DNA of 43,666 nt. Origin: a virus (taxonomy: Duplodnaviria; Heunggongvirae; Uroviricota; Caudoviricetes). Of this stretch, positions 18,553 to 32,232 are shown one piece after another. Position numbers and translations under genes: made by a program. The notes beneath the pieces are model-generated. The model did no database searches and was not told where the DNA came from. It saw nothing but the letters and a program-made list of their open reading frames with translations. The stretch's first letter is position 1; each line of letters opens with the position of its first letter. The stretch lies in the IMG/VR virus record IMGVR_UViG_3300045988_028451, positions 1 to 43,666 of that record; one strand, 5' to 3'.

Positions 18553-18895
18553 TTAAGACACAGTTGCTACAGTGCTGCTGGAGATAATATTACCATACAC
18601 ATCGCGAACAACCACTTTATACGTACCGGAATCTGCGGTAGTAGTGGACGCCTTCACATAGGAATCAGCGTTCGCCCCGGCGATAGCGTTGTTGTTCTTG
18701 TACCACTGGTAGGAATACGGCTCCAGACCGCCCGTTACGGTTACCGGTCAGTGTCATGGTTCCACCTGTGGTAACGGAGGTAGTAGCCGCCAGCGCGGAA
18801 GAGAAAGACGCTGGCGAGATATTTGCCATATCGATTTTAGCACCCACGGTATCGGCGGACACACCAGTAATACGACGTTTAATTACATCAACCAT
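18553..18895 (-). CDS. Ig-like domain protein interrupted by a +1 frame change (possible pseudogene, recoding or sequencing error)
   Basis: Frame A (18895 to 18665) ends ...GGTMTLT then runs 26 more codons to a stop; frame B from about 18744 to 18556 encodes VTVTGGLEPYSYQWYKNN...DSGTYKVVVRDVYGNIISS, a clear Ig-like domain; GAGGAG RBS before ATG at 18895. Confidence 0.5.
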
Positions 18896-18906: not shown

Positions 18907-19278
18907 TCAGGATGCGATGATTTTAGCGGCACGAAGTTGTGCCAGTAAGGCGTTAAGTTGAGTGCCTACCGCGTTAACCGCAGTCTGTGCGGACGTAGCA
19001 ACCGCGGCAGCCTCTTCACCCGTAACGGTCTGCGTGCCGACGTCTGTAACCGCAGCACCCTGAACGAACTTATTTCCCGCCATTGCGGTAGTCGAAGTTG
19101 TTCCGATCGCAAGGCTTGACGTACCTGCACCAATAGCGGTACGTGCCGCCTCTTGGGTCGCCCCCGCGGCGATTACCGCCGGTTTACCTGTTACTTCTTC
19201 CCAGCCTACGCTGATATCCGAGTCGCCGAAGTCAACATTCTGAAGGCTGCGCGGCAAGCCTTTTCCGGTCTTAGCCAT
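18907..19278 (-). CDS. hypothetical structural protein (Ala/Thr-rich)
   Basis: ORF immediately downstream of major capsid gene. Confidence 0.45.
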   Translation of the reverse strand: MAKTGKGLPRSLQNVDFGDSDISVGWEEVTGKPAVIAAGATQEAARTAIGAGTSSLAIGTTSTTAMAGNKFVQGAAVTDVGTQTVTGEEAAAVATSAQTAVNAVGTQLNALLAQLRAAKIIAS

Positions 19279-30158: not shown

Positions 30159-30180
30159 CTAGTCATTACGGAAAATAGAT

Positions 30181-30214
30181 AAAAAAAAAAATCCCGGCTG
30201 GGTCAGGGCCGGGA
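30181..30214 (-). terminator. rho-independent terminator downstream of the endolysin gene
   Basis: On minus strand TCCCGGC ... GCCGGGA stem followed by a run of 10-11 T. Confidence 0.7.
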
Positions 30215-30279: not shown

Positions 30280-30765
30280 TCAACCTTTCACCGCGCGCCC
30301 GATAGCCTCCGCCTCCTGCCACGGCTTACCGTCGAACAGCGCAAGACGCCCGGCGGTACGGCGACGCAGACCGAGTAATGGTTTGCCGTTCTGGTTGATG
30401 AACAGCGCCAGCTTAGCCCGCAGTGTCGCAATATCACCAGAACGCAGAGCCTTACCGGTTCCGGTAGTAGCCGCAATCACACCGGCACCCGCGTTATAGA
30501 CCAGGTCACACACAGCGTCGAACTGCGCCTGTGTCAGGGAGTGGTGTGCTGCCGCATCAACCGCAGCTACGGCCTTAGCCATATCGCGATTCAGTAACAG
30601 GAGGCCTTGGCCAGGGGTGATGGTCTTACCTTCATACACATGAGGGCCATAGCTTCCGTAGCCTATGGTTAAGTATTTTTCCGAAGGTGTCGCGCGGTAG
30701 GCGGTCCCGCGGAAATCTTCCCAAGCCGCAGTAAACTTGAGGCCGTTGTCACTCATCGAGCGCAT
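30280..30765 (-). CDS. endolysin, GH24 lysozyme-like
   Basis: WEDFRGTAYR...TIGYG and LTQAQFDAVCDLVYNAG ... GLRRRTAGRLALF resemble lysozyme motifs (as in P22 gp19 / T4 e); AAGGAG RBS. Confidence 0.75.
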   Translation of the reverse strand: MRSMSDNGLKFTAAWEDFRGTAYRATPSEKYLTIGYGSYGPHVYEGKTITPGQGLLLLNRDMAKAVAAVDAAAHHSLTQAQFDAVCDLVYNAGAGVIAATTGTGKALRSGDIATLRAKLALFINQNGKPLLGLRRRTAGRLALFDGKPWQEAEAIGRAVKG

Positions 30766-31318
30766 AAAGAGAACTCCTTGTGGTATTTATCTCGGGCTTC
30801 GCTAGCTACTAACTCAGCGAACTCAAGGTCATCGAAGTAACCGAAAAACTTGCGCACACCTTTTTGCAAACGGATTCTCACCATCCATTTCCCTTGCTGT
30901 CTATGGACGCCTGATACTCCGCTGGTGTTGTTGCGCGATAACCCACGGTTGCGGTTGTTGTCCTGCGAGTCACATTCTCTCAGGTTACAAAACCTATTAT
31001 CGTCTCTTACCCCGTTCCTGTGGTCTATCTGCCCGCTGGGCCACTCTCCTGTTATATAGAACCATGCAAGCCTGTGTTGCCGTAGGTATTTACCTTTGAG
31101 CATGATTACTTTATACCTGTCCGGGTCTCTCCCGTCTGGCACAGTCCTTTAGGGGCTTTTGAACTAACCGTCTTAAGCCACGTGAATAACCCCGTGTCAG
31201 GGTTGTAATCTAAAACGCTACGAACATAGTCACGGCTAAGTTCATTATCTGAAATGTTTCGAGACACGCTTATGTCCTCCGTATGACAGCCACGCCTGTC
31301 GAATCTGACGCAGCGCAA
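30753..31318 (-). CDS. HNH-AP2 homing endonuclease gene disrupted by a -1 frame change (two ORFs 31106..31318 and 30753..31142)
   Basis: N-terminal piece has DYNPDTGLFTWLK...KAPKG; second piece in the -1 frame has KGKYLRQHRLAWFYITGEWPSGQIDHRNGVRDDNRFCNLRECDSQDNNRN (HNH) and an AP2-like domain; homologous intact proteins are contiguous. Confidence 0.55.
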
Positions 31319-31517
31319 CTAATGTGATTAATGTCTCAGGCAACGTGGGCGACATGCTGCCCTGTAACAGGTGAATGCCCCCGGCAGCGCAGACAATAGC
31401 GGTCAGGATATAGAACACCCGACCAAATAGCCCGTCGTCAACGCTGGGGTGATACACATTAAACAGCGATGTGCCTCCGATTGCCAGCATACCGCCGAAC
31501 CAGAATAACTCATTCAT
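31245..31517 (-). CDS. membrane protein with two TM helices (holin partner / antiholin candidate)
   Basis: ATG at 31517 overlapping holin stop (ATGAATGA) with GAGGAG RBS; two hydrophobic helices. Confidence 0.4.
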   Translation of the reverse strand: MNELFWFGGMLAIGGTSLFNVYHPSVDDGLFGRVFYILTAIVCAAGGIHLLQGSMSPTLPETLITLVALRQIRQAWLSYGGHKRVSKHFR

Positions 31518-31818
31518 CCGGGCCTCCTCGACGTGCGATGTATTCTCCGGCGACGATGCCAGAAAGGCGGGAATAGATAGGCATCCAGAGAATGGCAATG
31601 ATGAATCCGAGGCCAGCTATCTCGCTCTCGCCGGTAATGCCGAACCATTGAGCCGCGAGAGGTGCGCCAAATACGGCGCAAGTGAAGCCGGTAGCGATAA
31701 AGCAGAAGCCATCGATGGGGCCAGAAATAACGGACTTATGTTGCCTTAGTCCGATTACCCCTCCGGCTAGCGCGGCAGCGAGAAGCCAGCCTGTCACTGT
31801 TTCAGTAAATTTATCCAA
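31510..31818 (-). CDS. holin (putative, three TM segments)
   Basis: 102 aa with three hydrophobic segments and charged C-terminus; TTG start after GGAGGA RBS; upstream of endolysin. Confidence 0.5.
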   Translation of the reverse strand: MDKFTETVTGWLLAAALAGGVIGLRQHKSVISGPIDGFCFIATGFTCAVFGAPLAAQWFGITGESEIAGLGFIIAILWMPIYSRLSGIVAGEYIARRGGPDE

Positions 31819-31893: not shown

Positions 31894-32232
31894 TTATTTG
31901 TGTCTCCAGATGTATTGTCGTCTCTGTGGCTTCGTCGGAATATCATCGTACCCCAGCGATTTCCAGTAATTAAATAACCTATTTGCGATTGCTGCGCGTT
32001 CCTGTGTTTTAAACTCACCCAGGTTAACGGCCTTCCCGTTCTGGAACCCGCAGGCGCGGACTGCTTTGCGTCTGGCTTGAATCTCAGGGTACAGCGCGTT
32101 ACGGCGGCGCTTGTATATTCGGGTGTTCGTTCTCGGTGACAGCGGCGCAAGGCCGCTTCGTTTCAGGATGTCAGTTGCAAGGCTCATATTCCGAGAATCT
32201 CGCGGGCCATTTCTTCTGTAACTTTCGAACAA
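31894..32232 (-). CDS. hypothetical protein
   Basis: ORF; probable start at internal ATG 32187. Confidence 0.4.
   Translation of the reverse strand: MFESYRRNGPRDSRNMSLATDILKRSGLAPLSPRTNTRIYKRRRNALYPEIQARRKAVRACGFQNGKAVNLGEFKTQERAAIANRLFNYWKSLGYDDIPTKPQRRQYIWRHK

Follow-up and report, generated by a model that had tools for sequence, protein, structure and literature searches.

A recent frameshift in an HNH-AP2 homing endonuclease gene at the 5′ end of a coliphage endolysin gene

Introduction

What is one to make of two overlapping reading frames that lie where a single gene would be expected, in the middle of a phage lysis cassette? The question is raised by a viral genome of 43,666 nucleotides (hereafter the window, meaning the whole of that stretch), which is the genome of a Kagunavirus-like (Guernseyvirinae) phage of Escherichia coli. 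A first-pass annotation had described two minus-strand open reading frames (ORFs), 31106–31318 and 30753–31142, between a pair of holin genes and the endolysin gene; both are present as claimed. They had been taken for the halves of one homing endonuclease, either decaying or broken by an artefact of sequencing. As set out below, the gene on 31267–30753 is a real and very recent pseudogene of a known kind.

Homing endonucleases that combine an HNH nuclease with an AP2 domain occur in phages, cyanobacteria and protists (Magnani et al. 2004, as cited in PMC10448857). The “IPA-HNH” homing endonuclease genes (HEGs) of vibriophage ICP1 even include one that is split by a frameshift, gp115-gp116 (Barth et al. 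2023, PMC10448857). Closer at hand, the same gene as in the window, at the same site and with the same overlaps, is annotated as an HNH endonuclease in Escherichia phages vB_EcoM_SHAK7858 (WVW77833.1) and vB_Ec_DUEC01 (XOE93288.1), and as a homing endonuclease, again at the same site, in Salmonella phages S102 (AXC39668.1), dunkel and vB_StyS-sam. These annotated intact orthologues share 92–95% nucleotide identity with the window copy. They differ from it in being continuous ORFs of 171–172 codons, while in the window copy one G is missing and Gly51 is replaced by Arg. Our literature search found no experimental paper on this endonuclease clade.

Organization of the Lysis Locus

All the genes discussed here are read from the minus strand. 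A class II holin-like gene (31510–31818, 102 aa; phrog_2359) is followed by a class I holin-like gene (31245–31517, 90 aa; phrog_2508), both identified from these families and from the annotation of their orthologues. Next comes the pseudogene of an HNH_3 plus AP2-type homing endonuclease (30753–31267, 515 nt), recognized by alignment with intact copies and by Pfam and phrog_99 matches; its extent is set by the intact 516-nt copies of SHAK7858, DUEC01 and one metagenome contig (L009). The last gene encodes an intact endolysin of 161 aa (30280–30765), a GH24 phage lysozyme that matches Pfam PF00959 (Phage_lysozyme) with 85 bits, and exactly this protein is present on 11 metagenome contigs. A stem followed by a T-run is plain in the sequence 3′ of the endolysin gene, at about 30179–30213; it was missed by the promoter and terminator scan.

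The genes are tightly interlocked. At its 3′ end the class I holin-like gene overlaps the start of the endonuclease gene by 23 nt; the same end contains the ribosome-binding site (RBS) of the endonuclease gene, GGAGGA at 31280–31275, with a GTG start codon 7 nt further on. This GTG (31267–31265), the annotated start in the orthologues, is the realistic start of the N-terminal frame, rather than the TTG at 31318 from which that frame had first been drawn. At the other end, the reported overlap with the endolysin start holds: the endolysin has an ATG at 30765, which precedes the endonuclease stop codon (TGA, 30755–30753), and a second one at 30756, which overlaps it. A Shine-Dalgarno sequence, AAGGAG (30774–30779), can be read where the endonuclease ORF nears its 3′ end, 8 nt 5′ of the ATG at 30765, and is kept in all HNH-bearing copies.

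The location of the gene between the holin pair and the endolysin thus stands, but the description of the site needs correcting: the insertion lies within what was once the 5′ end of the endolysin gene, whose start codon has been usurped. In the insert-less phages fFiEco02, fPoEco01 and BUCT823 the endolysin begins with the identical sequence GTGTCTCGAAACATTTCAGATAATGG. Judging from this sequence comparison, the start codon and first ~10 codons of the endonuclease gene (31238–31267, MSRNISDN.L) are the 5′ end of the ancestral endolysin gene, taken over by the element.

A Nuclease Domain Coupled to an AP2-Type Domain

When one base is restored, the translation of the gene matches the “HNH endonuclease” family phrog_99 over residues 3–167 (E = 1.4e-62). 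Pfam HNH_3 (PF13392) is matched with 48.1 bits against a cut-off of 24.8, by the downstream ORF and by the repaired protein alike, so that the two ORFs do prove to be pieces of a single gene. Across 67 homologues D82, H83, N91 and N95 are invariant and N104 and N107 nearly so; the downstream ORF of the window keeps all the HNH residues (IDHRNG...DNRFCNLR...NNRN), even if the domain has no continuous ORF in this copy, owing to the loss of one nucleotide after codon 41. For the nuclease part, sequence searches reach a single solved structure, that of I-HmuI from Bacillus phage SPO1 (1u3e), with E = 0.0075 for the single sequence and 2e-8 for the family profile. The match covers the DGY...HRL...DH...N...N region. 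I-HmuI differs in that it is intron-encoded and has another C-terminal DNA-binding region without an AP2 domain.

An AlphaFold (AF2) model of an intact, 94% identical homologue (P0016) has a pLDDT of 92. Its nuclease part is predicted to contain strands 80–83 and 96–99 with helix 101–106, elements that may form a beta-beta-alpha-metal fold; a Foldseek search of this half against the PDB gave no significant match, and I-HmuI is absent from the top Foldseek matches of the model. The C-terminal part is predicted to form strands at 121–145 and a helix at 148–162, the AP2 fold being a helix against which a sheet of three strands is packed.

While the HNH assignment of the first-pass annotation is confirmed directly, its AP2-like domain is reached by a longer road. 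Neither the repaired protein nor the isolated C-terminal 58 aa matches Pfam AP2 (PF00847) at E ≤ 10. However, PF00847 is matched by 34 of the 67 full-length homologues, and the family profile finds AP2/ERF structures (7wq5 at 9e-9, 7et4 at 1.3e-5 and 1gcc at 5e-3, as well as 5wx9 and 2gcc). Foldseek superposes the AP2 part of the P0016 model on 1gcc and 7et4 with rmsd values of 1.1–1.5 Å (1.5 Å on 1gcc) and a probability of 1.00, at E-values of just 0.02–0.2. Homologues, family profile and predicted fold therefore lend indirect support to an AP2-type C-terminal domain.

A Single-Base Deletion and a Second Damaging Change

Where is the gene broken? A −1 break after ...KAPKG had been proposed at 31115–31140. 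The shift is confirmed, although its place is a few bases upstream: alignment with intact homologues reveals one G missing at 31148–31146, in codon 41/42, where the window has A-GG instead of A-GGG. On the gene strand the window reads CCTAAAGG-ACTGTG where intact orthologues read CCTAAAGGGACTGTG, and GGG is found at this site in all 8 other copies aligned. The native reading ends at Gly41, and a premature TAA (31106–31108) closes an N-terminal piece of 53 codons, 41 of them native and 12 out of frame. An ATG (31103–31101) lies 2 nt past this stop.

The deletion is accompanied by another change 30 nt downstream, a G-to-A substitution at 31118 which turns the GGG codon (Gly51, in the “GY” motif) of every intact copy into AGG (Arg; 31116–31118). 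Since Gly51 is kept in at least 90% of the 67 homologues and aligns with the “DGY” of I-HmuI, conservation marks Gly51Arg as a second damaging change. From the deletion and Gly51Arg together it follows that this copy is very probably a dead passenger, in the degenerative phase of a homing element's life cycle, inactivated by a genuine loss of one nucleotide. Some doubt is left by the ATG at 31103, where reinitiation might yield a C-terminal fragment of 116 aa that comprises part of the HNH domain and the AP2 domain.

A Real Allele

A change of one base in the length of a short G-run is just what a sequencing or assembly artefact could produce, as homopolymer-length changes are the commonest type of sequencing error; the true phage would then have GGG and an intact endonuclease of 171 aa. 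The same genome also contains a second 1-nt indel, in a gene for an Ig-like capsid decoration protein. The recurrence of the allele speaks against such an explanation. Contigs from three ENA assemblies (L008, L010 and L012), reached by way of the exact endolysin sequence, match the window with 100% identity across the lesion. The assemblies come from different samples, though possibly in part from one cohort or from overlapping read sets. Their coverage is very different (375 for NODE_143 and 21.5 for NODE_1), and the L012 contig is present in 5 samples. Against an artefact, too, stands the separate nonsynonymous change at a near-invariant glycine 30 nt away. As for the second indel, we considered it as a sign of poor sequence quality and rejected that idea, because the other conserved genes compared with fPoEco01 are all in a single frame and because the same contig was recovered in several assemblies; both broken genes are accessory, and each has been disrupted independently, by different mutations, in other lineages. 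At the level of contigs an artefact is thus very unlikely, and of the two readings first offered, decay is the one favoured by the recurrence in at least three assemblies, by the nearby Gly51Arg and by the existence of a near-identical intact allele.

Other searches were less productive. The exact 53-, 70-, 116- and 129-aa ORF products are absent from a collection of 15 billion proteins, and a scan of IMG/VR returned no copy of the deletion allele. A conserved 22-mer of the gene found one intact copy in JGI metagenomes and none in GTDB genomes, and so added no further alleles.

Could the Two Frames Still Yield a Functional Product?

If the lesion is real, might the ribosome simply overcome it? 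A shift of −1 would be needed and the ORFs share 43 nt, an arrangement reminiscent of programmed −1 ribosomal frameshifting, by which the frames would be joined and the full-length enzyme still made, perhaps at a regulated level. Yet neither an X_XXY_YYZ heptamer nor a homopolymer of at least 4 bases occurs in the overlap (31148–31106), and it is because of this missing slippery site that frameshifting was rejected. The part downstream of the junction bears Gly51Arg as well. Every other aligned copy, the 99.8% identical one included, is continuous at this point (two have nonsense mutations elsewhere), and therefore the two-frame break is not conserved. Such frameshifting is hardly conceivable here.

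A shorter functional product deserves slightly more attention. With only 2 nt between the premature stop and the ATG at 31103, reinitiation could give a 116-aa nuclease or DNA-binding protein with the HNH motif and the AP2 domain, and the downstream ORF (129 or 116 aa) still matches HNH_3 at 48 bits. What would be lost, however, are residues 1–55, which in the AF2 model make up a helix and most of strands 19–22, 27–30 and 53–57 of the nuclease domain and which include the near-invariant Y21, G26, F28, W30, G41, G51 and Y52. Neither the GTG at 31142 nor the ATG at 31103 has a good Shine-Dalgarno sequence 5′ of it, and no relative is organized in this way by design. A functional fragment is accordingly quite improbable, and inactivation remains the preferred reading.

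Recent Inactivation and Strong Selection on Intact Copies

The inactivation can be dated in relative terms. Over 1701 nt, two intact metagenome copies (L009 and L011) differ from the window by just three changes: a T/C difference at 31415 (one substitution in the holin gene), the missing G and the G-to-A at 31118. With an intact allele 99.8% identical over 1.7 kb, the comparison indicates that the gene was inactivated very recently in the window lineage. The intact copies themselves bear the mark of strong purifying selection, as estimated from a dN/dS of 0.03–0.06 (about 0.05) in the core at dS values of 0.2–0.5.

The window copy is not the only one to have been broken. An independent null allele, combining W30stop with R66G, is found on two Logan contigs (L013 and L014), and an R159stop allele occurs in Salmonella assemblies (L115 and L116). 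Clusters of “truncated” proteins of 116 aa were also considered as further N-terminal null alleles and were rejected on inspection of L114, L115 and L116: in the first the ORF is open, 9 nt having been deleted in frame, and its start had been miscalled, and the other two have the C-terminal R159stop rather than an N-terminal break.

Sporadic Distribution and Probable Mobility of the Element

The gene is carried by only 16 of 50,697 phage records, corresponding to 13 distinct GenBank phages with intact 516-nt copies at this site, and in those records it always lies between a class I holin gene and a lysozyme gene. The carriers are Escherichia Kagunavirus-like phages and Salmonella Jerseyvirus. 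Among the records that match the lysis cassette, the insert is spanned (at least 80% coverage) in just 2 of 172. Empty sites were inspected in fFiEco02, fPoEco01, VT223 and LSPA1; in fFiEco02 and fPoEco01 the holin and endolysin genes are directly adjacent. Most relatives lack the element.

Sequence identity along the locus outlines what has moved. The mobile core of the endonuclease gene (30766–31189) is 95% identical to the Salmonella Jerseyvirus copies, and the 5′ end of the endolysin gene (30636–30765) is 97–99% identical among HNH-bearing phages of the two genera. Against Salmonella phage S102, for instance, the HNH core of the window is 95% identical and the adjoining 130-nt tract of the endolysin gene 97%, whereas the holins fall to 50–53% and the remaining endolysin to 76–77%; over the Salmonella phages compared, these flanks range from 50–54% (holins) to 71–77% (remaining endolysin). 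Against the closest relatives, whose allele lacks the insert, the same 130-nt tract reaches only 62–64% identity. These profiles indicate that the first ~130 nt of the endolysin gene travel with the endonuclease gene and that the endolysin is a chimera. In BUCT823, which lacks the endonuclease gene, the 5′ end of the endolysin gene is a hybrid, and phages such as VT223 and LSPA1, whose endolysins are of the cassette type but which lack the HNH gene, could represent the original source instead of having arisen by homing or by loss. More distant homologues, 65–77% identical, also lie immediately upstream of a phage lysozyme gene, with an identical 13-nt overlap. In its distribution and its identity profile the element appears to behave like a free-standing homing endonuclease gene.

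Free-standing endonucleases of phage T4 such as SegG are reported to show marker exclusion and co-conversion of flanking sequence (Liu et al. 2003, in the reference list of PMC10448857). The likeness to the window lies in intronless homing and in a tract of the neighbouring gene that moves along and leaves a local peak of identity, here the 130 nt of the endolysin. The Seg proteins, however, are GIY-YIG enzymes, while the element in the window is of the HNH_3 type, with homing deduced from sequence.

A Model for the Spread and Decay of the Element

How would such an element settle in a lysis gene without harm? It occupies the former 5′ end of that gene, using the endolysin RBS, GTG start and first ~10 codons, while its own 3′ end provides a new Shine-Dalgarno sequence and ATG, so that the endolysin can still be made. 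In a mixed infection, an intact enzyme would cut or nick the endolysin allele of a related phage without the insert, and recombinational repair would then transfer the endonuclease gene along with some 130 nt of the adjacent endolysin 5′ end. This tract is unlike the insert-less allele at most synonymous sites and is presumably not cut. We infer the nuclease activity, the target site, homing and the immunity of the linked endolysin allele from comparisons of this kind. In the window lineage, the change from GGG to GG ends translation after 53 codons, and Gly51Arg strikes a near-invariant residue. Lysis should be unaffected in this phage, because its endolysin is intact and has a ribosome-binding site and start of its own.

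The ICP1 genes offer the nearest precedent. Like the window gene they have an N-terminal HNH and a C-terminal AP2 domain, are free-standing and sporadic, and sit at boundaries of genetic exchange; one copy is split by a frameshift, as here. The ICP1 proteins are nevertheless too divergent for Pfam HNH_3, which the window protein clearly matches, and they belong to another phage family and another insertion site, that of the window being the endolysin 5′ end. The locus is therefore no new kind of system; it is an ordinary example of the decay of a homing element after its spread. For annotation, the two ORFs should be merged into a single HNH-AP2 homing endonuclease pseudogene instead of being listed as two hypothetical proteins, and the endolysin should be read as a chimera whose first ~130 nt were brought by the element. 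For the population genetics of selfish elements, the locus gives a snapshot of the life cycle of a homing element in gut coliphages, in which sites without the insert are found beside intact copies, these under strong purifying selection, and beside copies inactivated independently of one another. The dead copy has an intact counterpart with 99.8% identity over 1.7 kb, which also makes the locus a convenient system in which to ask whether the nuclease gives an advantage in mixed infection, and how fast it decays once fixed.

More tentatively, and with considerable doubt, this HNH-AP2 lineage may be a dedicated homing element of endolysin genes, aimed at the 5′ end, in the conserved region that codes for the GH24 catalytic site. 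It would bring along translation signals of its own and a replacement 5′ segment of the endolysin gene that resists cleavage, moving with them as a unit, and would range over Kagunavirus, Jerseyvirus and the remoter phages and prophages that hold the 65–77% identical homologues. If so, even a dead copy would still shield its phage from active ones, because the resistant endolysin allele is retained; inactivation would then be neutral or even favoured, and the frameshift, W30stop and R159stop alleles would fit.

Genome and Lysis Region

The window (43,666 nt) covers all or nearly all of the genome of a Kagunavirus-like (Guernseyvirinae) E. coli siphophage, and over its first 25 kb it shares 94% identity with Escherichia phage vB_EcoS_fPoEco01. 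Its lysis region is matched by 172 phage records, nearly all from Escherichia or Salmonella Guernseyvirinae. Read along the minus strand, this region comprises a class II holin-like gene (31818-31510), a class I holin-like gene (31517-31245), the endonuclease gene (31267-30753), the endolysin gene (30765-30280) and, 3′ of the latter, a stem-loop followed by a T-run. Just upstream of the holins, a 97-aa ORF (31894-32186, minus strand) belongs to phrog_9632 (function unknown); it has an AP2-like “GKAVNLGEFKTQERAAIA” stretch by eye and zero Pfam matches. Among the relatives, vB_EcoM_SHAK7858 (locus L001, OR594183.1) is classified in GenBank as Autographiviridae/Kayfunavirus and bears a “vB_EcoM” name. 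Since its lysis region is collinear with that of the window's Kagunavirus-like siphophage and 91% identical to it, this taxonomy is probably wrong.

A Single Gene Broken by One Missing Base

The first-pass annotation had described two overlapping minus-strand ORFs (31106-31318 and 30753-31142) as the pieces of one endonuclease gene. Both are present, and they do form a single gene: Escherichia phages SHAK7858 and DUEC01 carry at the same position a continuous 516-nt CDS, annotated as “HNH (homing) endonuclease.” The three-way alignment contains one gap, with CCTAAAGG-ACTGTG in the window vs. ...AAAGGGACTGTG in the two relatives. The break, for which a -1 shift had been proposed, is thus due to a single missing base, and its position has to be moved from 31115-31140 to the G-run at 31148-31146. 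GTG 31267 is the realistic start, lying 7 nt past a GGAGGA motif and agreeing with the annotation of the relatives; the longer ORF opened by a TTG is rejected. Translation from this start gives 41 native and 12 out-of-frame residues before a TAA at 31108-31106. Once repaired by one G, the protein is recognized by Pfam HNH_3 with 48 bits (cut-off 24.8 bits) and, along residues 3-167, by phrog_99 (“HNH endonuclease,” E = 1.4e-62).

The two frames could join only within 31148-31106, where neither an X_XXY_YYZ heptamer nor a homopolymer run of four or more was found. Programmed frameshifting is rejected on account of this missing slippery heptamer and because every other aligned copy is continuous there. 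Reinitiation is a residual possibility: an ATG at 31103, only 2 nt past the premature stop, would open a 116-aa fragment, but without residues 1-55 the nuclease domain of this fragment would be short of a helix, the greater part of three strands and several residues that are near-invariant. The window's copy would be expected to yield no active nuclease.

No AP2 domain is called by Pfam on the window's protein. The AP2-like domain proposed from the sequence is nevertheless supported, since PF00847 is matched by 34 of 67 full-length homologues (34-79% identity) and the family profile recovers solved structures on both sides of the protein. Its C-terminal third matches the AP2/ERF domains of WRI1 (7wq5, 9e-9), TEM1 (7et4, 1.3e-5), ERF096 and AtERF1, and its N-terminal two-thirds the HNH homing endonuclease I-HmuI (1u3e, 2e-8). 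In the confident AlphaFold model (pLDDT 92) of the intact homologue P0016 (94% identical), the C-terminal three-stranded sheet and helix overlay 1gcc and 7et4 at 1.1-1.5 Å.

Authenticity of the Deletion

Could the frame break be a sequencing or assembly artefact? The window's exact endolysin protein was found on 11 metagenome contigs, three of which, at 100% identity to the window in this region, also carry the deletion: L008 (ERZ28658546, sample SAMEA2467013), L010 (ERZ1690213, NODE_143, coverage 375) and L012 (ERZ1689490, NODE_1, coverage 21.5, a contig found in five samples). That a random consensus error should recur in assemblies of such different coverage appears very unlikely. The intact 171-codon gene is present on contigs L009 (SAMEA2467018) and L011, which differ from the window over 1,701 nt by a T/C at 31415 in the holin gene, the missing G, and a G-to-A at 31118 changing Gly51 to Arg. 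At least 90% of the 67 homologues share the “GY” motif to which Gly51 belongs and which aligns with the “DGY” of I-HmuI, so two of these three differences damage the endonuclease gene, at sites 30 nt apart. When all fPoEco01 proteins were searched against the window by tblastn, the conserved genes proved single-frame, with the sole exception of an Ig-like capsid decoration gene, which bears a 1-nt insertion and, like the endonuclease gene, is accessory. An artefact is on these grounds highly improbable, and of the two alternatives first offered, decaying selfish element or artefact, the recurrence, Gly51Arg, the near-identical intact allele and the sequence quality support the former.

Several human-gut metagenome assemblies (ERZ28658546, ERZ1690213, ERZ1689490 and four more samples) contain contigs of exactly 43,666 nt, and in the 3.6-6.5-kb stretches compared from L008, L010, L012 and L097, identity to the window is 100%. 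One phage strain may be shared across a cohort, overlapping data may have been re-assembled, or sequences may have been carried over between samples.

Insertion Site and Signature of Mobility

Used by itself as a blastn query, the gene is recovered from only 16 of 50,697 phage records, corresponding to 13 distinct phages (two Escherichia Kagunavirus-like, the rest Salmonella Jerseyvirus). Its location between the class I holin-like and lysozyme genes, already recognized in the first-pass annotation, holds in every carrier phage found. The insert is spanned by only two of the 172 lysis-cassette matches, and holin and endolysin are directly adjacent in the insert-less relatives fFiEco02 and fPoEco01. 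Alignment of filled and empty sites places the element within what was originally the endolysin gene's 5′ end. In insert-less phages the endolysin begins with GTGTCTCGAAACATTTCAGATAATGG... (MSRNISDNGLHF...); in insert-bearing phages this former start and about 10 codons now open the endonuclease ORF (MSRNISDNGLSHDY...), and the endolysin restarts at a new ATG at 30765, or at 30756 overlapping the endonuclease stop. An AAGGAG lies ahead of the new ATG, within the endonuclease 3′ end. With its own ribosome-binding site and start, the endolysin should be translated independently of the endonuclease frame, which would make the frameshift tolerable.

Conservation across the region is mosaic. Compared with Salmonella phage S102, identity is 50-53% in the holin genes, 95% in the endonuclease core (31189-30766), 97% in the first 130 nt of the endolysin and 76-77% in the rest of it. 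Against the insert-less allele found in the window's closest relatives, the same 130 nt reach only 62-64% identity, with a similar encoded protein, and directly 3′ of them (30635-30500) identity to fFiEco02 is back to 94%. Such a mosaic is the expected outcome if a cut genome acquires a copy of a homing endonuclease gene along with a co-converted neighbouring stretch. By analogy with the HNH homing endonuclease I-HmuI and with free-standing phage homing endonucleases such as the T4 Seg proteins, the intact enzyme would nick or cut the insert-less endolysin allele in mixed infection; repair would then bring in the endonuclease gene along with the 130 nt next to it, and the linked endolysin allele would presumably resist the enzyme.

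Phages VT223 (L104), LSPA1 (L105), TU03 and PK1 have the cassette-type endolysin allele, that is the 5′ end that accompanies the endonuclease gene elsewhere, and lack the gene itself. BUCT823 (L106), also without it, has a hybrid endolysin 5′ end, native to ...CATTTTAC and then cassette-type, the crossover falling inside codons 11-14. HNH-less phages with the cassette-type allele could represent donors, the outcome of partial conversion, or lineages from which the element was (precisely) lost.

The association with lysozyme genes is old, since the distant homologues P0017 (77% aa identity), P0018 (76%) and P0022 (65%) lie directly upstream of a Phage_lysozyme gene with a 13-nt overlap, equal to the window's arrangement. 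On Logan contigs L111 and L112, P0022 precedes the lysozyme gene in a different context, with a DUF2570-like gene downstream (L111) or adjoining IS605-family transposase genes (L112), which points to a prophage or some other bacterial background for this pairing.

Selection and Decay

Among intact copies, dN/dS is 0.03-0.06 at dS 0.2-0.5 (pairwise Nei-Gojobori, codons 23-171), meaning that purifying selection has maintained the function of the protein throughout its history. Compared with its nearest intact relative, the window's endonuclease gene shows no synonymous and one nonsynonymous change in addition to the frameshift; its inactivation is thus very recent. Further variants were found in other lineages. 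Logan contigs L013 and L014 carry a null allele independent of the window's, with a TGA in place of TGG at the near-invariant Trp30 and Arg66Gly in the HRLAW motif. An R159stop allele occurs in Salmonella assemblies, and an in-frame 9-nt deletion in one E. coli-associated contig. Together with empty sites and intact copies, these variants are what is expected from the cycle of invasion, fixation and degeneration of a homing element.

HNH + AP2 proteins form an established homing endonuclease family with members in phages, cyanobacteria and protists (Magnani et al., 2004, as cited in PMC10448857), and genes of this kind have been described at boundaries of genetic exchange between phages (Barth et al., 2023, PMC10448857). 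Like the window's gene, ICP1 gp115-gp116 is a frameshift-split copy (Barth et al., 2023, PMC10448857). Intact orthologues of the window's gene are already annotated in GenBank. Nothing in the papers that our literature searches listed pointed to a specific description of the element at the endolysin site, of its co-conversion tract or of the decayed alleles, which are details of a known phenomenon; the window's copy is a dead homing endonuclease gene newly added to an already known family.

Genes near the Major Capsid Gene

The Ig-like capsid decoration gene (18556-18895, minus strand) is split by its 1-nt insertion near 18745-18770 (GACCGTAAC to GACCGGTAAC). Intact versions (113 aa) occur in fPoEco01 and at the metagenome loci L095, L096, L098 and L100; in another lineage, L099 (Logan ERR14117957), the gene is broken independently by a 1-nt deletion about 33 nt upstream of the window's indel. 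Between the major capsid and decoration genes lies a 123-aa ORF (18907-19278, minus strand), absent from the closest relative fPoEco01 and present in metagenome relatives L095 and L099, with an 84-92-aa ORF instead in other metagenome relatives.
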